DNA of 63,765 nucleotides, the filler included, from Hausera hauseri (lineage: Eukaryota): NCBI GenBank assembly GCA_046269625.1. It is 12 parts of 12 records of this genome, joined end to end, with 100 filler letters (N's around TTAATTAATTAA, not from the genome) between each part and the next. Parts side by side here need not be neighbours in the genome. Positions count along the whole stretch, not along the records: positions 4,728 to 10,256 come from JBJURY010235629.1; 11 more parts are not named here. One strand, given 5' to 3'. The position numbers were made by a program, and so were the translations under genes. Below are positions 1 to 51,445 of this stretch, piece by piece (position 1 is the stretch's first letter; every line of letters begins with the position of its first letter). The notes beneath the pieces were generated by a model. The model was not told the DNA's origin and made no database searches. It worked only from the letters and a program-made list of their open reading frames with translations.

Positions 1-994
1 AGCGTTCTTAGAAGATACCTCCATCCAGATGTTTCGCTCTTAAAAAATGTAACTTTACTATTCTATGGGAAGAACAGAGGATTACTAGTCCTCGTCATTG
101 TTTCTCTTCTGTGTTCCTTCATGTGTGTTTCTGCCTGCAGGGATCATGTTAGTGTCTGCCATATATATATCCATATAGGGCTAAACACACCGCAGGAGGC
201 GTGCCCTCAGCCATGAACTGTTGGCCGCCATCACTGTCACCCTGATCCCCTCTTGTGTTTGGGGACGAGCTGCAGCTGTCCGCACAGCTGGAGGTTTCAC
301 TGTGTTCTTCTTCTTCCTACTTTAATCTACCTTTGACACACTCACCCCATCACCCCTTTAACTCTCATACTTTCCATCCTGCATGCGCTTCCCTGCTCGC
401 TGCCAAAGAAAGCAACAAGAGTCTAGAGGGAATAGTTTGTACCTGGTTCACTGTCAATCAGCCTCAAAGAAGAAGAGCAGACAGTGGTTCTAACTAGGAC
501 ACATGCTCTTTTTACATCTTCAAGAGTCAGCTCTGGGGGCAGCCTCTCAGAAAGATTTAGGATGATATTTTAAGGGATAGGAATAAGTGCATGCACTAGT
601 GAGCATAAGCCTATGCAGGCATAAAAGGACACTTCATAGGCAAATCCTAAATCTACTAGACATTTTTCAAGTACATCTAAGTTGTGTGTTTTCTGCTAAC
701 AGCTACAAAACATCACGGATAGTATGTCGGTTTCACACACAGGGAAGTGAAGCTGCGGAATTTCAGACAAAGACTTCAGAAAATGTGTTGGAAGGTATTT
801 CTGCGAGGGAAGTAAGGCTAGCTAACAAACTTTTCGAAGGAGTAGTAAATATTTTTCAGAAAGATAACTCGGTCAGTAAAATCCTATTCCCATCTCCTCG
901 TGGTGCCGGCTGGATAACCAACCAACGGGGAAGGTCTTCGACGTCAGACGGAGCGACGCGTCGGTCGAAGTATTTTCGGTCGCACCAATATGCA

Positions 995-3955
995 ATGTGT
1001 CTTCAAAATTTGGATCATACGGCTAGGGCGTCCCCCGTAAGCGACGCGCGTCGTCCTCGCCCGAACGGCGCGAGACATGTACGAGGGCTCCCCGCTAATG
1101 GACGGAGCGGGCTGAAGAAGCAAGTCCAAATGAGAGTGGTCACCATTAACATCGGTACAATGACTGGAAGAAGTAGAGAGCTGGCGTCCGCCCTGAAAGC
1201 GCGCGGCGTCGAAATCGCATGCGTTCAAGAAACGAAATGGAAAGGAGCCAAGGCCAGGGAGATCGGAGAAGGATACAAGCTCTATTACAACGGAGCACGG
1301 ACGAAACAGAACGGCGTTGGCGTCATCGTCAATAACAAACTGCGTGACGCTGTCGTCGAGGTCATCCGCACTTCCGACCGTGTGATGTCTATCAAAATCA
1401 ATGCCAACGAGACAACCCTCAGGGTCATTAGCTGTTACGCTCCGCAACCAGGTTGCTCCGATGATATCAAGGATGAGTTCTGGGAACAGCTGGATGACCA
1501 TATTCGATCGGTGGGTCCGGAAGAACACCTGCTGATTGGCGGTGATCTGAATGGCCATGTTGGATCCTCGCGTGATGGCTATAGGCGTCAGCATGGCGGA
1601 CATGGGCATGGCGTTCGCAATGATGATGGGGCGCGTGTCCTCAACTGTGCGGAGGCACATGATCTCGCAGTGGCGAATACGTTCTTCAGGAAGAGGCAAT
1701 CACATCTGCTCACATATGCCAGTGGTGCACGTGCGTCCCAAATCGACTACTGGATGACGCGCAGACGAGACCTCGATCTCGTGGTCGATGTAAAAGTCAT
1801 ACCATCTGACAACGTCGCCCCACAGCACCGCCCCCTTTTCATGGACTTGCGACTTGACATTGGGCAACATCAACGAGTGCGCAAGACTGGACTGACTCAT
1901 ACCAAGTGGTGGCGATTAAACGAGAACAAAAATCAACTGAAGATGGCTCTCGAACATCTGAGTGTCAACCCTGATCTGCCAGTGGCTCATGTATGGCGCA
2001 ATGTGGAAAACCAAATCCAAAAAGCCGCATGCAAGGTACTTGGGCAAACAAAACCTGGAGCGCGCTTCATCGATAAGCAAGTGTGGTGGTGGAATGAAGA
2101 CGTGCAGCGCGTCGTTAAAGAAAAGAAGATGGCCTTCAAGAAATGGCGCGAGACGAGCGATATTGCGGACTACGATCATTACCGCACAAAGAAATCAGCC
2201 GCAAAACGAGCAGTCGCTGAAGCAAAGACAGCACACTACGACCAGCTGTACGACGACTTGGACGCAACAGGGAAGACGAATAAGATCTATCGCCTCGCCA
2301 ACTCTCGACATCGGGCAACCCAAGATATCGGACAGGTCAAATGCATCAAAAGCAAAGATCACCAGATGCTGCTAGATTCGCCCTCTATCCTTCGGCGCTG
2401 GAACGAACACTTCTCGAGCATCTGCAACACCGAATTCCCCCATCCGCCGATTATTAGCGCGGACCCTGTGCTCGGACCTGTACCATACATCAGTGAAGTC
2501 GAGGTAGCCGACGCTATCAAGAGGATGAAGAATGGGAAAGCAACAGGCCCCGACGACATTCCAGCAGAGGTATGGAAGCTGCTTGGCCGCGACGGCGCTG
2601 CCATCCTCGCCAACTTATTTAACAACATCACGATTGACGGAGAGGTTCCCGACTCCTGGCGAACCAGCAGGACTGTGCCAATCTGGAAAGGCAAGGGTGA
2701 CATCGCGGAGTGCTCCAACTATCGCCCGATTCGGCTTTTATGTCACACTATGAAAATATTCGAAAGAGTGATTAACGCCCGGCTCAGGGACATTGTCCGC
2801 GTCACGCCCAACCAGTGTGGATTTGTAAAGGGGAGGGGCACAACGGACGCAATTCACGCGGCTAGGCTGCTCTTAGAGAGACACCGAGAGAAGAACAGGA
2901 CAGTACATCTAGCTTTCCTCGATCTGGAGAAGGCCTTTGACCGCGTACCACACGACCTTATCTGGCATGCCCTCAGATCACACGGCGTTCCTGAAGCTTA
3001 CGTGTCCTGGGTGAAGCTTCTTTACACCAACGTCACCAGCTCCGTCCTCTGCCCATCAGGAATATCGCCACCTTTCCCAATCACTGTTGGCGTTCACCAG
3101 GGATCGGCTCTCTCTCCACTCCTCTTCATCTTGTGCATGGACACGCTCACGGCTGACCTCCAAGGGTCACACCCATGGTCGCTACTGTTCGCCGATGACG
3201 TCTTCCTTGCCAGCACCACCAGGCACGAATTGCAGCAGCAAACTCAACAATGGAAGGCGCGGCTTGACGACTATGGGCTACGGTTAAACATCAGAAAGAC
3301 CGAGTACATGGAGTGTGGACCTCAAACCGATGGCACGATCAACATCGACGGCGAGGACCTTGAGAAGGTCGAGGAGTTCAAATATCTGGGCTCTGTCATC
3401 AGCAATGATGGAAGCGCGGCCGCTGATGCGCGGGCTCGAATTAGCGCAGCATGGCTAAAGTGGCGCCAGGTGACCGGCGTGTTGTGCGACCGTCGAATGC
3501 CCGACCGACTCAAGGCCAAGGTATACAAGACAGTGGTCCGACCAGTGGCCCTATATGGAACGGAATGTTGGCCGGCCACAGCAGAACAGGAGCGGGCCAT
3601 GCACGCCATGGAGATGAGGATGCTACGATGGAGTTTTGGTATCTCCCTACTCGATCATATCATGAATGAAGACATTCGTAAAAGAATGGGAGTTGCGCCG
3701 ATCACGGACAAGATGCGGGAGGCTCGACTACGATGGTATGGACATGTGGTGAGAAGCGACGAGAACTCTGTGGCGAATACAGCGATGAGGCTGAGCCCTG
3801 AGGGGCGTCGACCAAGAGGACGACCTAAGATGCGCTGGCGTGATAGAATTAGAGCAGACATGAAGATCGTCAACGCCAGACCAGAAGACGCCCTGGATCG
3901 AGCCAGGTGGAGAGGACTGAGCAGAGCTGCGGACCCTGCAATTGCGCGGGACTAA
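995..3955 (+). CDS. RTE APE endonuclease-reverse transcriptase (likely start Met at 995; ORF track extends to 587 through flanking DNA)
   Basis: APE motifs NIGTMTG, CVQETKW, GDLNGHVG, QIDY, PQHRPL. RT motifs KATGPD, NYRPIRLL, FLDLEKAFD, GVHQGSALSP, FADD, FKYLGS. RTE C-terminus RLRWYGHV..GRRPRGRPKMRW. Confidence 0.95.
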   Translation: MCLQNLDHTARASPVSDARRPRPNGARHVRGLPANGRSGLKKQVQMRVVTINIGTMTGRSRELASALKARGVEIACVQETKWKGAKAREIGEGYKLYYNGARTKQNGVGVIVNNKLRDAVVEVIRTSDRVMSIKINANETTLRVISCYAPQPGCSDDIKDEFWEQLDDHIRSVGPEEHLLIGGDLNGHVGSSRDGYRRQHGGHGHGVRNDDGARVLNCAEAHDLAVANTFFRKRQSHLLTYASGARASQIDYWMTRRRDLDLVVDVKVIPSDNVAPQHRPLFMDLRLDIGQHQRVRKTGLTHTKWWRLNENKNQLKMALEHLSVNPDLPVAHVWRNVENQIQKAACKVLGQTKPGARFIDKQVWWWNEDVQRVVKEKKMAFKKWRETSDIADYDHYRTKKSAAKRAVAEAKTAHYDQLYDDLDATGKTNKIYRLANSRHRATQDIGQVKCIKSKDHQMLLDSPSILRRWNEHFSSICNTEFPHPPIISADPVLGPVPYISEVEVADAIKRMKNGKATGPDDIPAEVWKLLGRDGAAILANLFNNITIDGEVPDSWRTSRTVPIWKGKGDIAECSNYRPIRLLCHTMKIFERVINARLRDIVRVTPNQCGFVKGRGTTDAIHAARLLLERHREKNRTVHLAFLDLEKAFDRVPHDLIWHALRSHGVPEAYVSWVKLLYTNVTSSVLCPSGISPPFPITVGVHQGSALSPLLFILCMDTLTADLQGSHPWSLLFADDVFLASTTRHELQQQTQQWKARLDDYGLRLNIRKTEYMECGPQTDGTINIDGEDLEKVEEFKYLGSVISNDGSAAADARARISAAWLKWRQVTGVLCDRRMPDRLKAKVYKTVVRPVALYGTECWPATAEQERAMHAMEMRMLRWSFGISLLDHIMNEDIRKRMGVAPITDKMREARLRWYGHVVRSDENSVANTAMRLSPEGRRPRGRPKMRWRDRIRADMKIVNARPEDALDRARWRGLSRAADPAIARD

Positions 3956-3972
3956 CGCAAGGATGAAAAAAA

Positions 3973-3994
3973 ATATATATATATATATATATAT
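3973..3994. repeat. (TA)n microsatellite at the RTE 3' end
   Basis: Seen directly. Confidence 0.9.
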
Positions 3995-4244
3995 TTTTGG
4001 CACAAATGCTTGGCACTATGTTGTGTTGCAAAACTAAAGCTGTCTTTATTTTCTTTTTTTAGTAGAAAATGTAAGAGGCAGCGAATTTGCACACTCATTT
4101 TCTATATTCTTGTGGACATGGAGGATAAATCTTCTCAAACGATTATTTTTTAAGCTTTAAGCTGACATTTATTAAAGTTTTCTTAATTATTTCAAAAGCC
4201 TAAATACCCCAAATCAGGGTTAACAGACAGGTGCCTCTCTCCTA

Positions 4245-4410
4245 CAGTTGGCGAGAAATGGGGTACACCCTGGACAATCACATTCTCACACACACCTAGT
4301 ATGACTTAGTGTTACCTGAAGAAAACAAACTCAAAACAGAAAGGCTGGGTTTTGATCCTGCAACCTTCTTGCTGTGTGGCAACAGCTCCAAACGCTGCAC
4401 CGCCGTGCAT
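4245..4410 (+). repeat. Degenerate teleost-type SINE/repeat remnant
   Basis: GGGGTACACCCTGGACA..CACATTCTCACACACACCTA..GATCCTGCAACCTTCTTGCTGTGTGGCAACAGC resembles abundant fish repeats (recalled, not searched). Confidence 0.5.
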
Positions 4411-4627
4411 CGGTTCATGTTTACCGAAATATTTATCTGTTTATCAGGTGGCAAACATTCCCGATTTTTTTCCCTCTCTTCTGCTGTACTTGCTGATTTT
4501 TTTTTTGCCCAAAAAGGCAGAGCTTTGTGGAAATCAACACAGGAAAATTGACAGGATGCTGTTTCTCAGACTGACCACATGTTGAAACTGTATATTTTCA
4601 AACCGAGAGTAAACATCCAGTAAACAT

Positions 4628-4727
4628 NNNNNNNNNNNNNNNNNNNNNNNNNNNNNNNNNNNNNNNNNNNNTTAATTAATTAANNNNNNNNNNNNNNNNN
4701 NNNNNNNNNNNNNNNNNNNNNNNNNNN
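4628..4727. other. Artificial contig-joining spacer (N44-TTAATTAATTAA-N44); identical spacers at 10257-10356, 15027-15126, 23563-23662, 28241-28340, 33326-33425, 39784-39883, 45454-45553, 49827-49926, 54553-54652, 59589-59688
   Basis: Identical 100-nt block 11 times. TTAATTAATTAA gives stops in all six frames. Sequence content changes abruptly at each spacer. Confidence 0.98.
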
Positions 4728-5167
4728 ACCAAATCCTTCTTTCAACATTCCCATTATTGTTTCATTATCCTTTTTCAGTTTCAATAAACATTTGATGACA
4801 CTGCGAACTTTAAAAGAATCAAAATCAGACATGCTTCCAAAATCAACAAAAAACATCAATTATTTTTAAAAGAGCCACCAAAATATGATAAAGTCGTGTA
4901 AGTTTAATTTTACTAAACAAAACAAACTAATGCGTACAATTTCTGGTCTAATCGCATTAACTTATCCAGAACCAAGTTCAGATGCAAACATATAACAATG
5001 TCGTCTGACATGGAGGCAATAACAAGCAATTTGAAAGACACAAAATAGACAATACGCTAGTTGTTACGTGGGTTACTATAGATATTGTCGTCAAGGGTTG
5101 TTTAAATAAATGGATTTTTGGCGTCTGGTCTGATTTAAATTTTCATTAGTAATTTGGATACATAACA

Positions 5168-5860
5168 ATGGCCTCACTCAGATTTGGCGAACCTTTGGAT
5201 TTGACAGACGATCACAGAAAATTACAAATAACCAACGCATTCATTACAACATGTGGCGTCGATACATATATAAAACTGGAAACGTTGATGGCATTCGATG
5301 CTCTAGATACTGTAATGTTCATAGAAGTAGAAGCGAAACGTTGAACATTTCTACCAAGAAGCTCCTATTAATCACTGAAATGATCAAATTTCATTGAATT
5401 CATCAAAAAGAAGTCAAAAGCTTAATGGACTTTTATTGCCAACTGAAAGATACGGTAAAAATTGTCAATTCAACGATTTGAAGAGGGCAGCAAGTTGAGA
5501 ATCCGAAATTATCAAAATGGAATTAATTTCGGTATTACAGGATTCCAAATGCAAACGATACATTGCGGATCTAATAGAATCGAATAGCAAAGATTTATCG
5601 GCTGATGATACATTTGAAAAAATTCGAACCTAATGCCTTATCGACCAATTCGCGTCCCAACTAGAGGCAAGAAAGCAATAGATAAATGCATTTAACATTT
5701 CACTCAAACATCAATCGAAAGATAGAAACGTATGCACATACAATCACAGTAGACACAACAAAGAAAACTGTCCGGCATTTGGTATGATATGTCGAAGATG
5801 CAATGGCCGCAACCACTTTGCGAATACTTGCCAAAACAGTGAAAAAAGTTTACTTGGTTT
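5168..5860 (+). pseudogene. Decayed Ty3/Gypsy gag (Mag-like) with C-terminal zinc knuckle
   Basis: CPAFGMICRRCNGRNHFANTC at about 5768-5830 matches CPAxGxxCxxCxxxNHFAxxC. The upstream frame is broken by stops and frameshifts. Confidence 0.65.
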
Positions 5861-5930
5861 AAGAAGATCTGGAAAACACAATATGCCTGAAGATATGGTT
5901 AGTCTTACAATAGCTCAGTCGAAAGAAAGT

Positions 5931-6160
5931 GTTACAGTTGGGGTGGTCCTTACTGTCTCCCACTATAACAATAGTTTATTTCAAGTTAAATCGCTTTTCA
6001 GCAGGTGTTCTCCAGGACTTCTCTTGCCGGGGAAAGCTTGATAAAAAACAGTTTCTTTTATTGTCTTTTTACTATAGTACCTGGTAGTTATCAGCATTTT
6101 AGGGAAATCTTGGGCTGTTCTGCAATGTATGTCTTCTTTTTTTCTTTTCCCTATTAGGGC
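5931..6160 (-). repeat. Possible polypurine tract and 3' LTR of the FN3-bearing Gypsy element
   Basis: Minus strand purine run AGGGAAAAGAAAAAAAGAAG (about 6158-6135), AATAAA near 5975 and terminal TGTAACA at 5931. No second LTR copy available to confirm. Confidence 0.35.
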
Positions 6161-6251
6161 ATTGATTTCCGTTATTATGGGACTACTAATCCCTTTTTTA
6201 ACGGTTCTATGCTTTGAGAGGCACTCGGCCCGTTTTGTTGGCTCTCGCTCC

Positions 6252-7705
6252 TTACCTCTCATCTTCCTTTTTCTTCTTGAATAGATAGTTGTAAATGGAT
6301 GATGTCTTCTTGGGTAGGGGTTTCTCTTCTAACTTCATCTTTTTAATTATTGTTTCTGGCCTAGGTTCCTCTTTTTGTTCCTTTTGAGACTTTGATGTTC
6401 CTGCTAATGTCCTGTTTCCTTTAATTATCGGTAACTTCATCTCATTTTCCTGTTTTTATTCCATAGTTTCGCGGACTGTGATCATAAGGCGATGCTTGTC
6501 TGTAGATTGGATGGTTCTAATTGGAGAGTAGGGCTTGAAGTTTTTCCGATATTTGATATCTATCTGTTCGGTTTCCAAGGAATTGTGTAGTTTGTATATA
6601 GGGTTTTTAGGTATTCATTCATGTGCCCACTTTAACATCTTATAAATCTCCTGTAAATATTGGGAACGCTGGCTAGCCGTTAAAAGTCTTGGAATTCTAT
6701 TTGGGTTTTTGGTCATTGCTTCGACTGTTATCTTGAAGAAGGCTTCTGGCGCGGTTGGTCGATTTTGTCCTTGTAGGATCTTCTCCATTCGCTGTTGGAC
6801 TACTGGATGAGTAGCTATTTCTCTAAGTCCGGCAATATTTGCATCGGATATCCCTAATAGCTCAATTTCCCCTTTTACATTGTATCCTGTTATCATACAA
6901 CCATAAAACAATAGCTTACCTCTGAACGGACCTGTAGAATATCTTTTCCATTTATCAGTTGTTCTTTTCTTAGTCCAGTCACTTCCACATATGATTCCTG
7001 AACATGTTTTCGAGGGTTTATAATGGTTGAGTATAATTCAGTCCCATCTATTTCTCAAATAGATATCTCGATCGGTATTCCATATCCATCGTCTTCTCTA
7101 CCGTAGTTCGTGGCCAGGACCCTTATGTTGCGACCGTCTTAGTTTAACCTATACGATTGCAGATGTTCATCCTTTCCTGCCTCTGTTGGGGTTTGTTCAA
7201 ACTGTAGAACTGGCAAGTCTAAGTTCCAGCCATCTTTATAAGTCATTTCGAACATTAGTTTAACCGGTAAGGCTGCTACTCTGAATTCTAATGCATAATC
7301 AATAGCTTCTAAGCCTCGTCCACTTATTCTAAACGTGCTAAATCGGTATTGGCGCCCTTCGTTACAGTCCCATTGCTAATTCTTTATTCTGTAGTAAACT
7401 TCTCCGTCGACCAAATGAATGAATATATCTTGCACTTGGGCAGTTCTATTCTAGATTAGTTCCTTAAGATTATACGATTTAGCTTGATTGTTATCGCGCA
7501 TTGCGTATAGCAGAACTGTGCGATTCCTTTCGGTGGTCCCTTTTAAGTCGTTGGGTATTTCATTTGCTTTTCGATATTCGACATATGTTTCTGTCCGTAG
7601 TGCGTCGTTTATTCTTCGGTATATGGCTTTCGATCTGGGGATAAAACTGTTTCGTATGTCTGTAAGAAGTCGTCGATTCTAGGTCGGCTGCTCGTACTTA
7701 TCATT
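6252..7705 (-). pseudogene. Decayed long ORF of unknown function downstream of the env-like ORF
   Basis: Long frame 7705-6910 broken by a few stops, one frameshift near 6910, then 6911-6615 and 6440-6252 in one frame. Same A-rich coding strand as pol. Confidence 0.5.
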
Positions 7706-7806
7706 TTGAAAGAAAATACAAAATAAAGGTCAATCCTAAAACAAAGTATTGTTCGAAATTTGAACCAATTTTTTGTTTGATAGTGGAATAACCCGATCTG
7801 TAGTTG

Positions 7807-9205
7807 TCAGGTTATTCCATCATTGATTTCGTATTGGGGTACCATCACTCTTAATTCCCTCTCGACTATTTTATGACGCTTATTATAGCAACTTTTGGTA
7901 ATCAATCGACAAAACGCAACTAGAATTATGAGAGCAAATATTGATGTTCCAATAATCGATATTAACGACAAAGTTGCCTGTTCGGTTAATTTTTCCATTT
8001 TAACAGTAGTTGTCACTTCGTCTTCCGTTTCGTCATTGGTTAATGATTTTGTTGAGACAATTTCATTTAAGGTTCGTACCGTGAACGTTCTACTTTGTCT
8101 ATTCTCTGCGTCCACTTGTACAATGTAATCCGTTTCAGGCTTCAAGTAGGTACATTTGATTCGATCGCTATCTTTCGCCAATATTACTTTCTGATTATTA
8201 TATGATGTTCGGCAGCTTATTTTTACGTCGTAATTAAGTACTTTATCCACAACAAAGGTTATCTCGCGTTGTTGTGTGCAGTATTTTAACGGAATTATTT
8301 CTATTTCCTTCTGAGGTAATCTATTCATTGGAATGATTCTGATNNNNNNNNNNTGCAGGAGTGGTATCCTTTGTTTTCGCAGTTGTAATTCTACTTGTTG
8401 TCATTCTAAGCGAATTCTGGTCTATTGGATTTCTAAATTGGTAGCTTCCTATATAAATACTCGACTGGTTTGGTCTAACTTCATATAAATCTAACCGAAT
8501 CCTATATCTATATTTCTGGGGCAACTTACAACATCTCTTCGGCCGCTCAACATCAATTTAACAATATTGTTGGTTGTGGACTGGTTCGTCCTTTTTCAGT
8601 AATTGAACCGTGATTACTCGACCGCTAATTAATCGTCCTTTTGTATTTATTTGAATACAGTTGACATTTGGGTTTTCTGTTATACTGGCGATATTTTCTT
8701 CCAGCATCGGCTTTACTGGGTCGACGAATTGGAACATTTCGTTAGGTTTTATCCCATGATGCTTGTTCCAAGCAGGGATAACTAATTGAAATTGTGGTTT
8801 TATTTCATAGATTCTAGATGATTTCGGTGAGTACAGTCGATTGGTAATGTTATAAGTATGTCCGAAATCCGTACTGCAATATTGCATATGTTTTCCATGC
8901 TCGAAATCACAATTCCTTGTTTCTTTTGTCATTATATCATCTAGGACAATTTGAATTCTTCCAACATTGTGGTGCAATCTCTGTACTTTAAATCCAACGC
9001 ATGTGGAGTTCGGCGAATAATAATGAATTTTGACTGATTGTAACAACGTCATTCCTTCTTGTCTTTGGATTTCTTCTAATGTTGGTATCTTTTCCGTTTT
9101 ATTAACTTCGTATGCATTTTTTAGTGTAGATCCGTCGTGCCACCATTTAGTTTGTGCTCTCGGAATACAAGAAGCAATTAAAGATAATGCTAAAACTATC
9201 TGCAC
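7807..9205 (-). pseudogene. env-position ORF of the Gypsy element: type I membrane protein (signal peptide, FN3-like domains, Thr-rich stalk, TM helix, short tail); one in-frame TAA at 8558-8560 and an N gap at 8344-8353
   Basis: N-terminal VQIVLALSLIASCIPRAQT. FN3 signature LKPETDYIVQVDAEN. TM LSLISIIGTSIFALIILVAFC. ORF pieces 8558-9205 and 8321-8524 share a frame. Frame across the N gap cannot be verified. Confidence 0.7.
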
Positions 9206-9208
9206 ATA

Positions 9209-10256
9209 CTATATGGGTCTGGTGATAATCGATGAGGTCTTGTTTTCTCGTGGTCTTAGATTGTAATGTTTAGCTGGCCTTATGTCTGTTTTAACTAATC
9301 TTTGAATCGATACAACTTCCTCTTTTCCGTTTTTATTGACATAAACCGTGGTTGGTGTAGTACGGATGATTTCATATGGTCCTCTTCCAGTACGTGTTAA
9401 TTTCAAGGATGTACCTTTCTTTGCGACTGGATAATGTATATAAACCCAATTTCCCTTTTACAGATTACGAGGTTTGATCTTTTTATCATATTGTTTTGTA
9501 ATTTATTTCTGGTATTCTAGTGATAACGCTTTTGCAACTTCCCAACATTTTTGTAATCTTGTCTGTAAGACTTCGGCAAAGTATTGTTCTAATTCTTCAA
9601 GGTTCTTTTCGTACGGCGTCATGACTAGATAAGTAGGTAAGATTGCCTTTTGTCCATACATCATAAAAACGGCATAAATCCTGTTGTTGGATGTGGAGTC
9701 GTATTATTTGCGAATTGTGTTCCTTCTAAGAATTCATCTCAATCCTTTCGGTCCTTTGCCACTACTGTTGATAATATTCGAAAAACTGTTGCGTTCATTC
9801 GCTCGACCACTCCATTACATTGGGTATGGTACGCTGTAGTGGTTAACGTTTAATTTTAAATATTTTGGTAATCTTTTCAAATAATTCGCTTGTAAAGTTC
9901 CTTCCTCTATCCGTTAAAATCTGTTCTGGTAGTCCGTATCTGCAGATTATTTTTCTTACTACTGCGTCGGCTAAAGTTTCAGCCTTTTGATCCAACAGTG
10001 CTACCAATTCGACGAAGTGTGTGAGTAGATCTACGCATGTTAAGATATATCTGTTATTCTTGTGAGTTTTCGGCAACGGTCCTACTATATCCATAGGCAT
10101 TGCTTGCATGGGCCTGTCTGGTACGTTTATTGGTTTTAATTCTGCTACGTAACCTTTTGTTTTCTTCTGTTTTGTTGCACAAACTTCGCATGCTCCTATC
10201 CAATTCTTTACATCAATATAGATGCTTGGCCAATAATATTTATTTAGTATCCTTTC
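9209..10256 (-). pseudogene. Ty3/Gypsy integrase (3' part of pol; truncated by contig end; one frameshift and stops)
   Basis: YYWP..CEVC zinc finger half, MDIVGPLP, ILTDRGRNF, TTAYHTQCNGVVERMN, and GPY motif (GRGPYEII). Confidence 0.93.
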
Positions 10257-23766: not shown

Positions 23767-26700
23767 AAATGTTTACAATATCCCATGTATTGCGTCTCCT
23801 GCATACATGAGGGTGGACAATGTCACAAGGAAATGGCCAAATATTATTCAGTGGTCAAGGACACGTACCTGTGTCCCGTGTGTTTTATTCAAAACACATG
23901 CCCGTACTCCAACTTTTATGAGATGCACAAGCATCATCTCGGTCCGTTCACGCGGTCCAAGAAAATGATGCATGTGTATTGCCCCACATACCCACGTTAC
24001 TGTACTTGTAAGGTGCATGCCTTTATATAGTGCGGTACTATGGTACAACAAAAACAACAACACAACAACAACCACAACGGTGCACGATAAACGGGCCTAT
24101 GTATGTTCCGGTTGTTCTATAGTTGAGAAGCATATCAACTATGAACAATTCTGTAAAAACCACGTTGGCCACTTGAACCAGTTTCAGAGGTACAAAAAGG
24201 AAATATTATTGGACGCGGCAAGAAGCAGTAACAGGAAACGTTAAGCATCAGCAAGCCTTGACAAATATTTTTAAACAACAGAAGTCAGAAACAGCAACAG
24301 CAGCAGCAGCATGAATGTGAATCGCCCATAACTGTCAAGTACAACCTGAACAGGTTGTACGTGGACATGAAGGTGGACATGTCGGCGAAAGCACCAACGC
24401 AATTGAAGGATGTACCCGCTAATGTGCGTAACCGGTTGGAATCATAAGTGGCCAAATTCCAACAACATTACTGCAAAGTGCAGTATTATACACTTGCAGA
24501 ATTTGAAAATCTGCAGGGTGACAGAAAACAATGGTACCTGTCACATCGATCCGTACCATACTTTGAGGATTTTATTGCCAATGTATGCGAAAAGCGTGAC
24601 GAAAAAATCGCCAACTACATCAAAAGGAGCAGTAGTTGGCGAGTTGTAAAGATTGTCACTCTCGGCTTTATTCTGACCAAGATGAGTGACATGATTTACC
24701 TGTCTGGACGTTCATTCATACCGACACCTGCATCCTTGTAGCAGTCTCTGGCGGTAGTGAATGTACAAAATATTAACGACGAATACGGCTTCATTTACAT
24801 CATTCTGGTCATATTGAAATATAATCAAGTGTTCAGACATCATGCAAATTGTGCAAAGCAGTACAGTAAGTATTTTTCAGAATTGGACTACGACGAGTGT
24901 TGTATGCCGATAAAACTCAAAACCATTCCGACTTTTGAACGGCGTAATTCGACACTGGCAATTAACGCGTTCCGGTTCAACACAATCGTAGAGATACCGG
25001 TGGATGAGGAAATTTACAAGAATCCTCATGTGGACATAATTTTCCGCAGTGGAAATCCAACTGGAAGCCCAGTAAATTTGTTGCTGTTGGAGAATGAAGA
25101 AAAGTTTCAATACACTGCCGTGACCAATTTGGACAGATTGTTGAACATGGAGCGTATACGGTTCAAATGGTGTCCCGTGTGTCTGCATAGATTCCGGTCA
25201 AATGAGACATGGGAAAAGAATGTGGCGCTGTGCAGGCAAACTTCATCAGGAACCACAATGTACGTTATGCCAGTCAAAAAGGAGTTGAGATTTAGCAACT
25301 GGTTAAAAACGGACTGTCCTGCACATGTGATGTATGCCGATATCGAAGAAATTCTACCACGCACAATGTATACAATCAAAAGCGCGTTCCAATTGCCCTC
25401 AGTATGTTGCTAGTACCATGGTTAAAACTGTGTACGTGATTTTCTGTAGCAGTTGGAAACCATAGTGGAAACGGAAATCGTGCCGTGGTATCGCAACAAT
25501 TGCAATAAGCCATTGATTTCCGCATACAAATATCAACTGTTGCTTTTTGCTGTTACCGATGAATGCTATCTGTACCACAAAATAATATCATTTGATGCAC
25601 AGAAACGGCTCATACCGGATCACGACCATTTCATCGGTCGATACTTGGGAGCAGCATGCAATTCACGCAATTTAGCAAGGCGAGTGCGACCATTCCTGCC
25701 GGTGATCTTTTATAATTTCCGAGGTTATGACTGTCACATTATTCTCAAATGGGCCATTAACGGCTTTCCGCACTGCGAACTCTCCATAATTCCCACTACA
25801 ATGGAGAAAGACCTGTTACTGTCTGCTGGTATTAACCGGTTTCAGGTACGCTTCCTTGATTCATTGCAATTTCTCAATGAATCTCTGGCAAAGCTGGTAA
25901 ATGCCTTGCCAGATGTGCCGCTAACATTAACTCAGTTCCCACACATTTTGCACGTAGCAAAGGTATATTCCCGTATGATTTTGCGATATTGTACGAGCGG
26001 CTCCAGATGACAGACGAATTGCCACCGCAATGGTCCGGTATCACAGAAGAAGAATATCACAAAACAAAATCGTTTTGATTAGATCTGGGCTGCAGAAAAC
26101 TGTTGGAGTACATGCTTCTGTATCTGAAATTGGACGTGTACCTGTTAGCCTATGTGTTTCAGACATTTCCAGCTAAAGCGTTGGCAGGAGATAATCTGGA
26201 GCCACTTAACTTTTACTCAATATCTGAAATGAGTTGGACATCAGCCCTAATGTCACTGGATCGGGATATTGAGCTGTTGGAAGACCCGGAAATGTATCGA
26301 ATGTTTAATGGTGGTATTTGTGGCGGCATAACATTTGTCAAAAAGCATCACTTAACCAGTGATGATACCACATCACTGTTGTATATCGACGTTAATAACC
26401 TGTATGGCTAAGCGCTTTCACAACCCTTGCCGTACGGTTTTTTCCAATGGGTAGTTGACAAACAGGACCTGGACACAGTACTGGAAAATCTGTCGAAAGC
26501 AGACACGACAGCAGGAAACAGTTCAATCGGATACCTAATGGAAATCGATCTTGTGGTACCAGATGAGCTGCATGACATTCTGGATGAACTGTCAGTCGCA
26601 CCAATTAGACAATATCCTCCGGGCTCGAAGGTGAAAAAGCTGCTTATGACGCATGAACCCAAGTAAAATTACATAGTTCATTGGCGTCTGTTGCAATTTT

Positions 26701-27298
26701 ACATGCAGCTGGATGTACGAGTCACACGGCTGCATCGCGCAATTCGATGCGCACAAGCTCTGATATTCAAGCCGTACAACACTCGGAATTTTGAAAAATG
26801 AGCTGCAGCTTGTGCGAAATTTAAAAAAGACTATTACAAACTGAAAAACAATTCTATCTACGGGAAAACAGTAGAGAATCTGAAAAAGCGACTCAATGTA
26901 CGGCTATGTAATATCGAAAAGCGGTTGGTCACGTACACGAGCAAGGCACAGTTCAGGCGATCAACGCACATTGCCGATGGATTAGTTACCGTGCTTTTGA
27001 ACAGGGAAGACGTCGTACTGGACCGGCCAAGTTATATAGGACAAGTGGTATTGGATCTAAGCAAGTTGCGGATGTATGAGCTACAGTATCGCGATTTGGC
27101 ACCTTACCGGCAAATGTTTAGCAACGGCAACTGCAGCGGCGGCGGCAGCGGCGGATGAAGGATCAATATAATTGCTCGTGACACAGTTAGGTTTTTCTTT
27201 AAACTGGAAAACGTCAATCCCGAACAACTACTGCGGCTGTTTCAAGGATGAAAGTGAAGGTTCGGTTCAATATCGGGAATGGGCATTTCTACGGCCAG
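23767..27298 (+). pseudogene. Polinton/Maverick protein-primed DNA polymerase B, copy 1 (decayed), with N-terminal Cys/His domain
   Basis: LSGRSFIPTP, VNVQN, YADIE, DHDH..YLGAAC, YNFRGYD, FLDSLQFL, YLKLDV, GICGG, YIDVNNLYG, KLKNNSIYGKTVEN, YIGQVVLDLSKLRMY. Confidence 0.92.
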
Positions 27299-27414
27299 CT
27301 TTTGTTTTATTATCATTTAATTTATCTATTTAACTTAATATGATGAGAAACAACATAAAGAACAAAATCAACAAAATTTATTAATCATAACCTGAAATAA
27401 AAAAGAAGGTGAGC

Positions 27415-27852
27415 CCAATCAGCGTAAACTTTCCCAGCTTCCGTATTGGTGATTTAACGCCGTGCAGATCCATATATCCTTTCAACTTCAATGTTAGATG
27501 ATCTTTAGCTCCTTCTGATGGCAAAACTGCTGCTGCTGTTTCTCCGCCATGTGAACTGACAATTTTTTGCCATTTTTGCTTTGAGAAAAATCGTCACTAA
27601 ATCACTGTCAACTTTTCTAATTGTTTCTTCCATTGTATCATAATCATCGTCGCTGATCTTTTTCACCAATAGACCGTGTTTCACCGGTTTGATTTTGACC
27701 GTTTGCGTCAATGGCAATTGAATAGCGTTGCACAGATAATGTAAGTTGTATCCATTATACAACCGGGAATTTCTGAGCGAATATTCGCTGTACCTTGGCT
27801 TTTTTGAGATACTCGCGGAACTGTCACCTGCTGAATTGATTTCCAAAGATAT
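27415..27852 (-). pseudogene. Polinton accessory ORF convergent with PolB (homolog of 55524-55989); possible OB-fold ssDNA-binding protein
   Basis: Clear DNA and protein similarity to 55524-55989. Function is inferred only. Confidence 0.6.
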
Positions 27853-27997
27853 TTTTTAAATAAGACTAACGTGAAATGAAATTGCATCCATATTTATACC
27901 AAATTTGTTCATACCGGTTTGGCTTCATTGTAAACATTAGACATTTACTTTGTGAGTTTTGTCTCATATCACAATGATACAAATTACCTCTACGTCA

Positions 27998-28240
27998 TTA
28001 AAGCCCATGACACTGTTTCGTTCCGTTATTGAAGAAGTCATTCGTAATGTGTACAATTTCCATTATACAACATTTACATTCTGAACATTGGTGGGTTACT
28101 TTGGTGGTGGAACACATTTGACAAACAACGAGATGGCCGTACATTAAGAATACCGTATCCACTTTTCCATGTTTACATAGTACACACATAAACTTACAGT
28201 CTCGTACTTTGTCCATTATTTTCACTTTCAGGTTCTTTAA
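27998..28240 (-). CDS. IAP/MDM2-type RING finger protein fragment (5' truncated by contig end)
   Basis: CVLCKHGKVDTVFLMYGHLVVCQMC..CSECKCCI fits CxxC-x8-FxPCGHxxxCxxC-xn-CPxCRxxI with PC degenerate. Confidence 0.72.
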   Translation of the reverse strand, partial: LKNLKVKIMDKVRDCKFMCVLCKHGKVDTVFLMYGHLVVCQMCSTTKVTHQCSECKCCIMEIVHITNDFFNNGTKQCHGL

Positions 28241-28424
28241 NNNNNNNNNNNNNNNNNNNNNNNNNNNNNNNNNNNNNNNNNNNNTTAATTAATTAANNNN
28301 NNNNNNNNNNNNNNNNNNNNNNNNNNNNNNNNNNNNNNNNTAGGATTATGTTTAATGTTTATGTATTTTAATTTATTTTATTTATAATTCTAATCTATTT
28401 TAAATGTTAATTGTTTAAATTTAG

Positions 28425-31400
28425 AAATGCAAGCAATATTCCATGTATTGCATCTCTTGCATGCATGCGGAGGGAATCAGTGCCATCAACAGATGTAGAA
28501 ATATTACAAAATTGGCACGGACACGTATGTGTGTTCAACGAGTGATCTTCCAACCCAATGTCCGTACCCCGACTTTTATGAGATGCACAAGCATCATCTC
28601 GGACCGTTAACTCGGTCTAAGAAAATGATGGTTGAGCATTGCCCCACATACCCACACTACTGCAGAAATAAAGTGCACAACGTTAGTGGTTGTCATAGTT
28701 CAATGGAGCAGTACTATAGCACCACAACGCTGCACAATAAACGGGCCTATGTTTGTCCCGGTTGCTCAATAGTTGAAGCTGAAATCAACAATGAATAATT
28801 TTATAATTTGCACAAGGTCCACTTAAACCAGCTTAAGCGGTCGAAAAAACAATTAGTTATGTACGCAACTAAAAGCAGCAACATCCCCTCAACAACCAGT
28901 AGGAAGCGTCAGGCCTCAACAAGTCTTGACGAATTAATCAGAAATAGTACCTAGCAGCAGCAGCAGCAGCAGCAGAAGCAGAGCCAGGAGCAGCAGGAAC
29001 AGGATCAACAACAACAACAACAATAGGAGCAGCAGGAGGCCAATATTCCAAATATTACAGTCAGGCACGGTCTGAACAGATCGTATGTGAACACAAAAGT
29101 GAACATGTATGCGAAAACAACAACATCGCAGTTGAGACATGTTCCGCAAAATGCCCGCAACCGGTTGGAATGAAAAGTGGAGAAATTCAAACATCATTGC
29201 AAAGAGCAATATTACGCACTTGCAGAATTCGAAAACGTACAAGGTGATAGGAAACAGTGGTACCTGTCACATCAAGCTGTACCATACGCCGAAGATTTTA
29301 TTGTCGATGTAGGCAAAAAGCTTGAGGAGAAAATGACCAACTACACAGAAAATGTAGTGGATGGTGAATTATAAAAATTGTCACCCTTGCCTTTATCATA
29401 ACAAAGTCGAGTGACATAATATATTTATTTGGCCGATCATTCACGCCGACACCTGTAGCTTTAAGGCAGTCTCTGGCAGTAGTGAATGTTAAAAATACTA
29501 ATGATGAATACTGTTTTCTTTACAGTATTCTGGCGGTATTGAAATATGACGAAGTGGGCAGCATAGTGCATTTCGTCCAAAACAGTATCAGAAATATTTT
29601 TCCTAATTAAATTGCGATGGATGCTGGATGCTGATGAAACTGAAATCCATTTTGACATTTTAACGGCGTAATCCAACACGAGCAATCAACGTGTTCCGGT
29701 ACAACACAATAATAGAGATACCGGTGGATGAAGAAATTTACAAAAATCCCCATGTGGATATAATCTATCGTAGTCGAAACCCAAATGGCCACCCAATATA
29801 TTTATTGCTGTCAGAGCAAAAGGAAAAATTCCATTACGTTGCCCTGACAAATCTGGACAAACTGCTGAACATTGAACATGACGAGTTCATCAAAAACGTA
29901 TACGGTGTAAATAGTGTCCTGTATGTCTGCGTGGATTCACATCAGAAACAACATGGGAGAAACATGTGGCTTTGTGGAGACAAAATTCGTTAAGAACCAC
30001 AATGTAGGTCATGCCAGTCAAAAAGGAACTGAGATTCAGTGATTGGTCAAAATCCGATAGTCCGACATACGTGGTATATGCTGATATTGAAGCCATTCTA
30101 CCACGGTACAATGTACACGACCAAAAACGTGTTCCAATCGCTGTCGGTATGTTAATAGTCCCAGTAAAAGCCGCAGCTCAACCTCAATATTACGTTTTCC
30201 GCGGCTGGTAGTGACCAATAAAGGCCATTGGACAGCTGTATTATTACGTTTTTCATGGTTGGAACTGTATTCGTGATTTCCTCTAGCAGTTGGAAATAAT
30301 AGTAGAAACTGAAATCGCACTGTGGTATTTCGGTAATGGCATCAATCCTTTGATCTAGACAGATGGAGATAAACGCCTGACGTTTACAATAACGGATGAA
30401 TGTTACCTGTGCCACAAAATATTACCGTTTGATGCACTGGAACGGCTAGTACCGCATCACGATCATTTTATTGGTCAATATCTCGCAGCAGCATATAATG
30501 TATGCAATTTGGCAAGGCGTGTGCGACCATTCCTACTGGTAGTATTTCATAACTTCAGGGTTATGATTGTCACCATATTTTAAAATGGGCACTAAACGAT
30601 GAAAGATTCTGTTTTGGAACGAAAATTGTCATTGAAGTTTGGAAGATTTTTGGACACTTGAATTGTTGGTTGAATACTGGAAAAGTTTTGTTTTCTAAAT
30701 ATGCTTTAAAGTTGCTCAAAAAATCGTATGTGAACGAAATTTATAACGTTGACGATAAAACTGAATTTAAAGAATGAATTAAATGAGAAACATACCACCA
30801 ATTTCCGTGCAAAAACAATGTTCTAAAAGGTGAAGAATAAAAAAGTCCCAAAATGTCTGTATTTTTTTTCAACATTTTTTTACAAGTTGCCGTCACGAAT
30901 ATTTAAACAAAAAAAGAATCATGACTATACAATCCAAAAATATTTTGTTATTTTTTGGTTGGGCCAATGTTGGCACATCAAACGGATCTCCGCATTGGGA
31001 ACTATCCGTAATTCCGACTACTATAGAGAAATACTTGTTACTGTCTGCTCGTACAAATCGGTTCTAGGTACGCTTCCTCAATTCATTGCAATTTCTCAAT
31101 AAATCTTTGGCAAAAATGGTGAATGTCTTGCCAGATGTGCTGCTAACAATGACTCAGTTCCCTGTACATATTTCGCGTATCAAAAACATATTTCCATATG
31201 ATTTTGCAATATCGTACGAGCGGCTCCAGGCGACAGACGAATTATCACCGCCATGGCCCGGTGTCACAGAAGAAGAAAGTAACAAAGCACAGTCGTTTTA
31301 GTAGAGCTCGGCTTCAGAAACCTGTTGAAATACATGCTTCAGTATCTGAAATTGGATGAATACCTGTTAGCCGATGTGTTTCAGACATTTCGAGCTAAAG

Positions 31401-31880
31401 CGTTGACAGAAGACAGGCTGGAGCCATTCAACTTTTACTCAATAGCCGGAATGAGTTGGGCATCAGCTCTGATGTCACCGGACCGGGATATTGAGATATT
31501 GCAAGACATGGAAATGTACCGAATATTTGATGTTCGTATTCGTGGAGGCATGACATTTGTCAAAAAGCATCACGTAGCCAGTGATGATACCACATTACTG
31601 TTTTATATCGACATTAACAAGCTCTACATCTGGGCGCTTTCACAACCCTTGCCGTACGGTTCATTCGAATAGACAGTCGCTAAGCAAGAGCTGGACGAAA
31701 TAATAGAAAATCTGCCGAGAGAAGACACAACAGAAAGCAGCTTAATCGGATACCTGATGAAAGTCGACTTCGTGGTACCAGATGAGTTGCATGACTTTCT
31801 GGATGAACTACCGGTCGACCAATTAACCAATGTCCGCCGGGTTTGAAGATGAAGAAGCTGCTTATGATGCATGAACTTAA
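28425..31880 (+). pseudogene. Polinton PolB copy 2 (decayed, interrupted by a 382-bp insertion, 3' truncated)
   Basis: Colinear with copy 1: YADIEAILP, HDHF, IFPYDF, YLKLDEYLLADVFQTFR, IRGG, YIDINKLY, KLLMMHE. Confidence 0.9.
30598..30979. mobile_element. 382-bp insertion in PolB copy 2 with a 4-bp target-site duplication (AAAC) and GATG...CATC termini
   Basis: Removing it restores KWALNGSPHWELS, matching KWAINGFPH(C/W)ELS in the other copies. AAAC at 30594-30597 and 30980-30983. Confidence 0.7.
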
Positions 31881-34142
31881 GTGTGGTGCCCACCGCGGCC
31901 GGTGCCCTTCGACCCATTTTGGTCGAGCACGGTCGGGCGTCCGTTATCGCCGTGTCGGATCAATAGTGGGGTCCGACTCCCCGCTTTAAGAATTTAATCC
32001 GTCGATTTAGACGAGAATACTATGGAATATCTCCCAGTGCTACATTCAGACCCACTATCCGACCAACAGTTCCTCATCACTTTATCACACATCTCCATTT
32101 CAACCCAGATAACAAGCACTACTCAACCAGCAACAACAACTCATTCCCGGCAATCTGACTACCGATGGTGTTATTGGAACCAGTCAGTACGGCATATTCA
32201 ATTCAACTTTAGGTCCGTCCGATGTGTCAACAAATAACGATTTACCGGACTTCCATGGACAACCGAAACCGCAAACCCACAGCAATATCATGCATGGAGT
32301 AAATGGGTCGACATTTATGCTACCGCCAAAATTTCAATATTCTTACGAAATCCCCGCTATTCGCTACCAATCAACAGTACAGTAGTCCCACACCGCCTAC
32401 TCAATCGAGTCTACTGAACTTAAAACTGAGATTCGACAATCATTCAGGTTTTAGAATAATCGATAAGTCTCTATTACATTCACTCTTACAATTTCCTTTT
32501 CATGTTGTCATGGTATATCACATTGTTCAAATGTTTAAATGCGTCCTCAAAATTATCTCCTTCAATACAAGCTGATATTTCACTGATAATCATATCGCAT
32601 TTCTGCTCGACAATCTTCGCCAGACGATTCTAGTCAGCACTGCTCCTTATTTCCGCAATTTGCTCGTTCAGCTCCACAACGTCTATCAACGTATCTGAAT
32701 CGACAGACATTTTACTGCCCTTCAATTCGTACCCTTTCAATTTCAGCACATAAATTGCACGCGTCACTGAAATGGCCTCCTCTCTCTGTGACATCATTAA
32801 TTTGTCCAAAGACAGCAATGGATATTTTACTTCACTCAATCGTCTAATTTTATCCGGATGGACTAGCTGCTAAAATTGTTTCCATCGTTGTTAATGAAAT
32901 CCAAATTCATATCAAACTGAGTTTCAGGAATTCCGAACAAATCAAAATATAAAAATTCACATTTGCACAATTTCTCATCGCAATTCCAACAGCTTCGATT
33001 GACTACTTCGCATGTGTGATTTGATGCCGTAAAAATGTTGAACAATTTTACCGGATTTACTTCCCCTTTGTAAACATTGTTTGTGGCCTTGTAAGATTGC
33101 TAATTCAAGTTTGATTATGCCATCATGTTTAAAAAAGGATTTAATTTTTCGATTTTGAATTTCATTCTACATTACGAACATTTTGCAATTTCAATACGAA
33201 TTTGATTTCCATATATTTTATAAGCAGTTACGTTCTAATTTCGATTTCTACTTTTGGTGTTAAATGCCTTCACATATGACCGGATACAAAATTCTTTTGC
33301 GAAATCATGTCATTGTTAGTCATAGNNNNNNNNNNNNNNNNNNNNNNNNNNNNNNNNNNNNNNNNNNNNTTAATTAATTAANNNNNNNNNNNNNNNNNNN
33401 NNNNNNNNNNNNNNNNNNNNNNNNNAATATTAGTAAAATTTGCAAAAAAATTATTGCAGTGCATGTGAAAAATTGTTTAGATGATAATATTTGGCCGAAA
33501 TGAAACTGTTTTATTATTGGTGACTGGATTATTTTTTATGAAACTTTAGTAAAAAAAAAGGGATTTCAGATGGAATTTTTTGTCGAAATTAGTGAAAGTA
33601 TGAAAAATTGCTGTTTTGTCTAGTTTTTGGGGTGGGAAAGTCAATATTGCTATATACCACAGTCAAAATTGATGAGCGAAGAACTATTAGAAATGCGATT
33701 AAAAACTAGACAATACATCGAAGCATAGAATAACATTGTTGGCATGCTAGAAGTAAAACCGAAATTAAATATTCATTGAAAAACGTATCGAAAATTGTTT
33801 GTAATTTCAAAATTCCGTACGTAAGAGGAAATTGAAGTGTTTAAGGACCAATCGTATCTGTGTTTCCAAAAATATTTCTCACATAACTAAAATGTTGTAC
33901 TTTTATAACAAAACTAGCAGTACGAAATATAATTATACACACAAATTTTATAGATGGCACTTATTATTTTGCAATCAGTATAATTAAAAAATAAAGGATA
34001 ACGATAAAAGACGATAAAAATCAATGAATCATCGTATGATAAAATCACCAAAAGACAAGAACAGTCAGTGACACATTTTTATAGTGACTGATCTTACACT
34101 AAACACAAAATGACAAAAATCTGAAATTCAACTGCGTCTCTG

Positions 34143-39245: not shown

Positions 39246-39892
39246 TTGAAATATTTCTCAGGATATTTTATGGGGTCTTTTGTATTGAGCAACTTGTATT
39301 CAGAATTTAAACAAAAAACAATTGATACAAAAGTTGATTAAATGCGGTTATTTTATTGGTACTTATTTATTATATTTCCGCTGAAATGAAAATTTTTAAA
39401 ATTTTCTTTTGATCGGTGCTCATTAGAAAGATGTTGGATTGTTAATTTAAAATGACTGAATTTTAGTTTTACTAACATTATTTTTATAGAACGTTTAAAA
39501 TATTTAGGATCTTATTTACTGTTCTTAATCTAAAATATCAACTGTTTTGATACATTTTATATTATATGTTCTTTATAATATTCTATCATATAAGTGCAAT
39601 ATCTTCATTAAAATTAGACTTTCCAACAGTTTGTTTGGGAATAAGCGTGCTTTTTTCGAAGTTCGGTATTAATACCAATTCCTGTTCCGTCTACATTTAT
39701 CACGGTACTGTCACTGTAGGTATCAACTTCCAACAATAAAAATTTTCATATACTTAATACCATCAAAATTTTGTATCTACAATNNNNNNNNNNNNNNNNN
39801 NNNNNNNNNNNNNNNNNNNNNNNNNNNTTAATTAATTAANNNNNNNNNNNNNNNNNNNNNNNNNNNNNNNNNNNNNNNNNNNNACAGTCGAA

Positions 39893-46701: not shown

Positions 46702-47079
46702 AGGTTAATTTTTATAATCTTAAATTATACGTTAAATTATTCATTAATTTTGGTCTTTTGAAATTCTTTACACTTGTTACTTAGTGGTACATGTTAATAA
46801 TATTCGTTTTTCTTTTTTTCGAATAATTCTCAACCTTCAACGGTAATTGACTTACCGGCTTATCATTACGGTGTGGGTTCGGCAAGGTCCGGTGGCGTAA
46901 ATGGTCACCTGCGCTTGTGAATATAACGTGAATGCTAACACCCTTGGGTTGTAAATAAGTACAGGGATTGTCTTCCTGGTTACAACTGCAACAATCGCCA
47001 TCTAACATCACATAATCACCTTTAAACTTATAAGGCCGAAAAGTGCACGGCAACCTCTAGTATATGCCTTAATAACCTT

Positions 47080-51097: not shown

Positions 51098-51206
51098 TTT
51101 TTAACACAATGACTATAATAAAATATAATTCAAAAATATTTTAGTAAATGTTGTGTTTATGCACCGTAGTGAAGAAGATCAGTTATAGAATGAGCTAGCA
51201 ATACAA

Positions 51207-51400
51207 AGTAAGTAGGTAGAAGTGAGCTCTCTACCGCACTCCTCTGATTGGTCAAAAAAACACTTTTCCCCACCTGATTGGCTACAACGATCATTTCACT
51301 AAGATTTTCCTACAAACCCCCACCCCTGGCCCTAAAAGGAGGTCAATCAATGGACTTTGGACCGAGTCAGATCGGTATTAAGCATAAGAAAAAAAATAAT
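51207..51400. repeat. Putative Polinton terminus / terminal inverted repeat
   Basis: Starts AGTAAGTAGGTAG (Polinton termini typically begin with AG/AGT repeats). Two CTGATTGG boxes. Lies between the MCP stop and unrelated pogo DNA. Confidence 0.4.
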
Positions 51401-51445
51401 AAATTACTTCATGGTACTAACAAAAAGAGAGACATCAGATTTTAT

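Follow-up and report, generated by a model that had tools for sequence, protein, structure and literature searches.

The window analysed here is a stretch of 63,765 nucleotides from Hausera hauseri (assembly GCA_046269625.1), in which contigs of ~5 kb are strung together by N-padded linkers. One of these contigs (4728-10256) carries, on its minus strand, part of a Gypsy-type long terminal repeat (LTR) retrotransposon, in which the integrase is followed by a gene whose predicted product is a membrane protein made up of fibronectin type III (FN3) modules. We examined the layout of this gene, its connection to pol, its predicted fold and its distribution among other copies of the element. Positions are those of the window, and features lie on the minus strand unless stated otherwise.

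A membrane-protein gene in a Gypsy-type element

The contig ends within a Gypsy-type integrase (9212-10256), which is decayed, is truncated by the contig end, and comprises an H2C2 zinc-binding end (Pfam Integrase_H2C2, E 3e-7), an rve core (E 9.7e-13) and a tail that we take to be of the GPY/F type from a motif visible in its sequence. The integrase occupies the last position in pol, as in Gypsy, and in this copy it is interrupted by stop codons and by two or more breaks in the frame. A scan for its relatives returned three loci (L001, L002 and L003), of which L002 and L003 are short; the integrase is 35% identical to that of L001, which has an F-type env among the open reading frames (ORFs) listed. 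We note that L001, at 937-7941 of a metagenome contig, appears to be an intact gag-pol-env element, and it served as the positive control for detection of F-type env (Baculo_F, E 3.4e-26).

The integrase ends in RPI followed by a TAG codon (9209-9211), beyond which a hydrophobic segment that lacks an ATG of its own is read in the same frame, as a preliminary description of this locus had observed; we confirmed this arrangement on the minus strand. The hydrophobic segment resembles an internal signal peptide (9149-9208; hydropathy 2.8 over 12 residues), with small residues ahead of the cleavage point predicted by the established rule for signal peptides. Downstream of it lie domain 1 (8765-9052), which has conserved cysteines and, from a model of the homologous domain described below, a predicted FN3 fold; domain 2 (8423-8719), an internal duplicate of domain 1; and a Ser/Thr-rich linker (8354-8422). 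An assembly gap of 10 N, across which the frame changes (8344-8353), separates the linker from domain 3 (8065-8343), which is FN3-like and holds the FN3 motif noted in the preliminary description. The protein, of ~470 amino acids, is completed by a Thr-rich stalk (7972-8064; fraction of Ser plus Thr 0.31), a predicted transmembrane (TM) helix (7909-7971; hydropathy 2.6-2.7 over 19 residues, at best 2.72) and a short cytoplasmic tail (7807-7908) with a juxtamembrane Cys, a basic patch and a stop at 7809-7807. All of the parts previously listed, that is, the Cys-containing beta-rich domains, Thr-rich linker, FN3 motif, Thr-rich stalk, TM helix and YEI tail, are present in the sequence.

A search of 1.84 billion representatives yielded exactly one homologue of this protein (E 6e-31), a natural singleton of 479 amino acids from one contig of 4939 nucleotides, which we refer to as P0004. 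P0004 was likewise the sole return of a profile search with 4424 candidates; no homologue of either half was found among longer proteins, and none was found in viral contigs and JGI metagenomes. P0004 aligns to both pieces of the window protein (30% and 28% identity) and has the same layout, with a signal segment, three beta-sandwich domains, Thr-rich linkers, a TM helix and a basic tail, as well as conserved cysteines, in a protein whose ectodomain is ~390 amino acids. The signal segment is the best-kept part (13 of 21 residues identical, 62%, compared to 25-36% elsewhere), and the tail is identical at 10 of 29 positions; the linker has the same fraction of Ser plus Thr in both proteins (0.39), and a helix at residues 433-465 of the P0004 model corresponds to the TM helix. 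The signal and TM calls rest on hydropathy in both homologues. P0004 is continuous where the window has its gap: the upstream piece aligns up to residue 308-310 and the downstream piece from 310. No furin-type site (R-x-K/R-R) was found in P0004, and the window copy has a single, unconserved match within domain 2. The YEI of the tail was considered as a conserved signal and ruled out, since its Tyr is out of register with that of the P0004 tail.

We compared the contig with contigs from two public runs of two studies, X1 and X2, in which 0.26 and 0.09 of sampled words were present, respectively; 8996 records from X1 and 741 from X2 aligned to it. Contig depth is no copy number and was not taken as one. 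A polypurine tract (6262-6278), 17 purines with TG immediately after, is the sole such run in 5800-6700, and it borders a candidate 3' LTR of 332 bp (5930-6261) that begins with TG, ends with TGTAACA and contains AATAAA at 6062 and 5980; the other LTR and the primer-binding site lie beyond the contig. The TGTAACA end at 5930 falls in the bin of a step in depth (the chance of such a 7-mer in the interval is ~0.03): between bins 5653-5837 and 5838-6022, depth rose from 97 to 2485 in X1 and from 2 to 27 in X2. Depth in X1 was 16-148 left of 5838 and 485-43,000 from 5838 to the contig end, the surface-protein gene included, and separate X1 contigs end near 5880. At single sites, as many as 95 different contigs carried variants, which points to an element with many divergent copies. 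The surface-protein gene belongs to this element, as it lies within the boundary set by the polypurine tract and candidate 3' LTR and is covered together with the integrase by thousands of contigs. A host gene adjoining the insertion was ruled out, since the gene is upstream of the polypurine tract and candidate LTR and is covered like the rest of the element.

An open frame from pol into the surface protein

The TAG at the end of the integrase is private to this copy. Its middle base is a different letter, giving a sense codon, in 1351.4 of 1391.9 depth in X1 (97%; 42 contigs) and in all 63.9 depth in X2 (8 contigs). No insertions or deletions were listed in 9140-9270 of the X1 and X2 contigs, and the alignment with P0004 runs through the TAG position. 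Moreover, the frame from 9703 to 8354 contains four stops in this copy, all of which differ in other copies. One of these is the second in-frame stop of the surface-protein ORF (8560-8558, within domain 2), where the codon differs in all 87.8 depth of X1 (6 contigs) and X2 has no cover; the ORF is also broken here by the N gap with its change of frame. The TAG is one of several lesions in a decayed copy. Thus, with a sense codon at the TAG position and the stops private to this copy, the architecture of the family is a single open frame that joins integrase, signal segment and ectodomain.

Records that bridge the junction, with at least 31 letters on either side, were found in X1 (4 of the 8 records listed; 224 further records exist). 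Variable positions listed around the junction fell preferentially at third codon positions of the shared frame (10 of 15, P = 0.0085). Positions taken from the longer alignment showed no such bias (8 of 19), as expected if these are mostly mutations of this copy itself. We found no in-frame ATG between 9622 and 9150. An out-of-frame ATG at 9207 was considered as a frameshifted start and rejected, since it opens only three codons and the junction has no listed insertion or deletion.

Predicted fold of the ectodomain

Domains 1 and 2 are duplicates of each other, with z scores of 5.0-9.2 in all four cross pairs and at most 1 in 1000 shuffles scoring as high. Kinship of domain 3 with either one is marginal (z at most 2.3; profile E 3e-4 for one pair). 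A model of domain 1, built from the P0004 domain and two related domains, has seven strands (pLDDT, the predicted local distance difference test, 68). In a VIA structure search of 48,161 chains, the best match to this model had Z 8.2 and a root-mean-square deviation (rmsd) of 2.7 Å over 84 aligned residues, and at least 45 of the best 50 rows (Z 8.2-6.8; rmsd mostly 2.4-3.0 Å; 75-93 residues) are FN3 domains or proteins built from them, according to title or established knowledge. There was no viral glycoprotein among these 50 rows, which does not exclude one lower down. Similarly, the whole P0004 model had tandem FN3 proteins as its top rows in Foldseek (best E 1.8e-3). Neither the domain 1 model nor the whole P0004 model matched a viral fold model at E 0.001. 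Three rows in the BFVD comparison with domain 1 were the African swine fever virus CD2 homologue (TM-score 0.49-0.52). A seven-stranded FN3 beta-sandwich is found in the model of domain 1 and, by homology, is expected for domain 2, with moderate confidence.

For domain 3, the Pfam fn3 family scored E 0.0031 with the domain (18.1 bits, against a gathering threshold of 25) and 0.0085 with a piece of 178 amino acids, and two more families of the FN3 clan were likewise below cut-off. Thus, the motif previously called a canonical FN3 is present, but its Pfam score is below the cut-off. In the ESM Atlas, the clusters nearest to domain 3 plus the TM helix were FNDC9 and FNDC5 (0.92-0.91, a likeness with weak value for recognition), and the whole of P0004 reached a language-model likeness of at most 0.88, with FN3 proteins among the named rows. 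Sequence searches of the PDB gave no match with the two alignments A1 and A2, and for domain 3 gave only rows with E 0.5-0.7, one of them a consensus FN3.

Signals of known env proteins were sought as well. No homology to Baculo_F or paramyxovirus F was detected in P0004 or in P0002 and P0003, the other query proteins in the Pfam scans, and tblastn of the L001 env against the window gave no match; since the L001 env was recognized as a positive control, these negatives exclude an F-type env. There was no Pfam match to gB and no gB among the fold matches listed, in a comparison that had no positive control and used a poor whole-protein model; the tandem duplicated beta-sandwich layout argues against a gB-type env. 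Nor was there a signal of a Gc-like class II fusogen, as the gene ends in the TM helix, tail and stop, and the next ORF is exonuclease-like. In the predicted type I topology, Pol would be in the cytosol, the three FN3 modules outside and the tail inside. The proposal that an FN3 surface protein takes the place of the fusogen was supported in that the protein is of FN3 type and lacks an F-type env signal; it requires amendment in that three modules are predicted, and not one.

Proposed expression and role of the surface protein

The surface-protein gene lies inside the element, its frame is open to pol in other copies, its layout is kept in a homologue with 30% identity, and its first two domains are duplicates. 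We consider it very probable that the architecture is an element-borne, FN3-type membrane protein fused in frame to pol. Our preferred reading of the whole, held with no more than even confidence, is that the locus is one decayed member of a Gypsy-type family with many copies, in which pol otherwise runs into a membrane protein with three predicted FN3 modules, likely a non-fusogenic attachment protein. The attachment role itself seems an evenly balanced proposition when set beside a decoy receptor, spliced expression and a Gn-like remnant.

In this scheme, the ribosome would pass from Pol into the internal signal, such that the surface protein would form the end of the Pol polyprotein. The ectodomain would enter the endoplasmic reticulum (ER), where signal peptidase could free the protein at the internal signal peptide; alternatively, an uncut signal segment could tether Pol to the ER. 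The protein might then be displayed by the producing cell or carried by a membrane budded from it, and bind a receptor on neighbouring (germline) cells, allowing adhesion-based spread from cell to cell, with particle entry by host endocytosis or a host fusogen. A more far-reaching version, that a Gypsy lineage swapped its fusogen for a captured triple-FN3 adhesion or receptor protein and now docks and enters without a fusion protein of its own, accompanied by an accessory protein with an exonuclease fold, is tentative and in our judgement doubtful; it would constitute a third route for retroelements between cells, beside the classical env and sORF2.

Several observations weigh against the attachment-protein reading. 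Pol is usually scarce and would be a poor supply route for a surface protein. The N-terminus of P0004, with three Met in its first ten residues, is unlike the integrase tail of the window, such that in the P0004 lineage the gene may stand alone with its own start, or the P0004 copy itself may be broken. The contig stops within the integrase, so that we see the 3' half of one copy, with gag, reverse transcriptase (RT) and the 5' LTR beyond the contig; moreover, X1 perhaps derives from the window's own species, in which case its support is not independent, and none of the 8 X2 records listed bridges the junction by the 31-letter rule. With respect to the fold, the best Z of domain 1 (8.2) is close to the zone of common arrangements of the tool (<8) and comes from a model with pLDDT 68; of the single domains, modelling covered domain 1, and the whole P0004 model is poor (pLDDT 46) and in VIA matched mixed Ig-like folds (best Z 6.5). 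Pfam fn3 found no match in domains 1 and 2 or in P0004. Finally, 9 of 50 BFVD rows for domain 1 were bunyavirus glycoproteins (TM-score 0.37-0.47, best E 0.022).

We considered that the same FN3 protein might be made chiefly from a spliced subgenomic message, in which an upstream start is joined to the gene, with a site in the integrase tail or the AG at 9201-9200 as acceptor, and the Pol fusion is a by-product. Errantivirus env is made by splicing, and such a route would fit the lack of an in-frame ATG near the signal, a feature shared by the F-type env of L001, which has no ATG ahead of its signal segment. It would also fit the AG at 9201-9200, for which no variant was listed in either run, and the several more AG just upstream. 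In contrast, the candidate acceptors have weak pyrimidine tracts, and since other copies have pol and the gene in one open frame, a fused product exists unless Pol is cut; we regard splicing as a serious but rather unlikely main route. Far less credible is the mechanism that the preliminary description had offered as an option, programmed readthrough of a conserved pol stop by analogy with Sirevirus-type elements, in which a stop separates pol from the env-like ORF. The frame of this copy does continue over a single TAG, and ~3% of X1 depth retains its base, but a sense codon is found in 97% of X1 and all X2 depth, and three more stops of the same frame are equally private. These observations refute readthrough for the family, and its chances are the slightest among the explanations considered.

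If the protein acted on the host cell surface, as a decoy receptor, a modulator of immunity or signalling, or a block to re-entry of related elements, no transfer of particles would be involved. Among the matches of domain 1, FN3 domains of cytokine and guidance receptors tie with those of adhesion proteins within 1 Z, the conserved Cys pairs of domains 1 and 2 resemble those of cytokine receptors, and an exonuclease-like accessory ORF in the element may act on host defence. This possibility is nonetheless unlikely: the env position, the Pol fusion and the short tail with Cys and basic residues look like those of viral surface proteins, and the searches gave no ligand or host parent gene. A descent from a viral companion glycoprotein, of the bunyavirus Gn or alphavirus E2 type, with loss of the fusogen half of a Gn-Gc env, seems quite improbable. 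The bunyavirus rows noted above, the best of which has TM-score 0.41 and rmsd 4.9 Å, and two alphavirus E2 rows, both weak, obtained with the whole P0004 model speak for it, and in Atlas virus a Gn-Gc env sits at the end of a single polyprotein (PMC9094657). However, the fit is far poorer (TM-score 0.37-0.47, rmsd 3.7-5.3 Å) than that to FN3 (2.4-3.0 Å over 84-89 residues), and all E values are 0.001 or higher; domain 2 repeats domain 1 in tandem, domain 3 has an FN3 motif of cellular type, no Gc-like gene lies downstream, and the integrase is of Gypsy type. That the gene is a fragment of a host FN3 gene, beside the element or passively carried by it, is very improbable. FN3-TM proteins are common among host genes and a single homologue was found; against this, the gene is intronless, lies between the integrase and the polypurine tract and LTR and occurs in many divergent contigs of two runs, with a third-position bias at the junction and a layout preserved at 30% identity.

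Known elements and other features of the window

The attachment-protein reading can be compared with several known systems. Errantiviruses (Ty3/gypsy elements with env) are likewise multi-copy animal elements in which a Gypsy-type integrase is followed by a signal, an ectodomain and a C-terminal TM helix, and in a survey of 1512 elements env was of F type or gB type only (PMC13524379). In contrast, the protein described here has three predicted FN3 modules, no furin site and an in-frame fusion to pol. That survey used F and gB baits and would not recover an FN3 gene; "fibronectin" and "FN3" do not occur in its text and seven supplementary files as available, nor "exonuclease" in those supplements (PMC13524379). 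Atlas virus, a hookworm belpaovirus, is a precedent for a single Gag-Pol-Env polyprotein with a surface protein at its end, and domain III of its Gc is FN3-like in topology, but it belongs to Bel/Pao and its env pairs Gn with Gc, a class II fusogen, compared to three stand-alone FN3-type modules with no Gc-like gene here (PMC9094657).

MDG1-group elements with sORF2 are Gypsy-type, pass between cells although they lack a classical env, and encode a membrane protein whose TM segment is followed by a basic patch, and thus provide a precedent for infectious LTR elements that use a membrane protein other than the classical env fusogen; sORF2, however, is a short, FAST-like fusogen, unlike the ~470-residue protein with a large folded ectodomain found here (PMC11952523). 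LTR elements of bdelloid rotifers have cargo other than env downstream of pol, among it TM proteins as well as DnaQ-like (DEDDy) exonucleases, but their TM ORF3s are of 210-230 amino acids, whereas the element described here combines a surface-protein gene with an exonuclease-like ORF (PMC5408684). Cellular type I proteins with FN3 domains (FNDC5 and FNDC9, cytokine receptors, LAR, L1CAM and Tie2) share the fold of domain 1 and a language-model likeness to domain 3 and the TM helix; they differ in that structural identity is 4-14%, no parent was found at the sequence level, and the present protein is encoded by a retrotransposon. The protein is env-like in position and topology, lies outside the known env families, and belongs with those of LTR retrotransposons that carry extra ORFs.

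The preliminary description had known of no such architecture, and our literature searches agree. In full-text literature we found no FN3 surface protein in an LTR element; subscription journals, repeat-database reports and preprint supplements fell mostly outside this scope, and an unpublished or paywalled annotation is possible. Among individual papers, as available, fibronectin does not occur in that on bdelloid ORF3s (PMC5408684), is not mentioned in two others (PMC11952523, PMC6338049), and appears in that on Atlas virus only for Gc domain III (PMC9094657). If the reading is correct, retroelements also recruit adhesion or receptor folds as surface proteins. The gene also shows that env surveys that depend on baits overlook a class of surface genes. 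The intact homologue P0004 is a concrete protein with which to ask whether attachment alone moves a retrotransposon between cells.

A further, broken ORF (6252-7704) lies inside the element and had been overlooked in the preliminary description. Its ATG is 102 nucleotides past the surface-protein stop, its end is uncertain (6456 or 6252), and its frame is broken close to 7642 and to 6907, two places at which part of the other copies are of different length. The stretch 7138-6618 gave weak but concordant matches of DnaQ type in three libraries, with its two halves scored separately across the frame break (PHROG_192, E 0.0019; NCBIfam DnaQ-type, E 0.025 and 0.037; PolC exonuclease 2p1j, E 0.57). 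There was no Pfam exonuclease match in the ORF, and comparison of the stretch with phages and plasmids gave nothing useful. What we take to be the acidic DEDD motifs look degenerate, the first of them as judged by eye. The ORF possibly encodes an RNA-binding accessory protein.

Beyond the candidate 3' LTR, the flank (5682-5929, plus strand) retains part of a gag-like gene in which a zinc knuckle gives a weak match (Pfam zf-CCHC, E 0.17). This gene, interrupted by the element, belongs to a repeat that is older, has fewer copies and runs on the other strand. Two more decayed Gypsy-type elements, with no evident env-like gene, occupy 15127-23562 and 45554-49826 of the window, and the first of these has integrase sequence twice, at 16399-17016 and at the contig end. 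Several contigs (23663-33325 and 49927-63765) hold genes that by eye are decayed and Polinton-like, presumably pieces of a protein-primed polymerase and capsid-like and ATPase-like ORFs, and three of these contigs are 75-86% alike. A Nup98-Nup96 gene (34233-39257, minus strand), closer to vertebrate than to yeast PDB sequences, is intronless across 1463 codons and has a TAG at 34868-34866 followed by 211 further open codons, which may reflect an error in the sequence, decay to a pseudogene or recoding of the stop. Together with LINE-type elements on neighbouring contigs, the Nup98-Nup96 gene makes an animal host likely. Long interspersed nuclear element (LINE)-type elements with endonuclease and RT are found at 587-3955 (plus strand), with an intact ORF2, and at 11265-14944 (minus strand), with one stop at 11936-11934.

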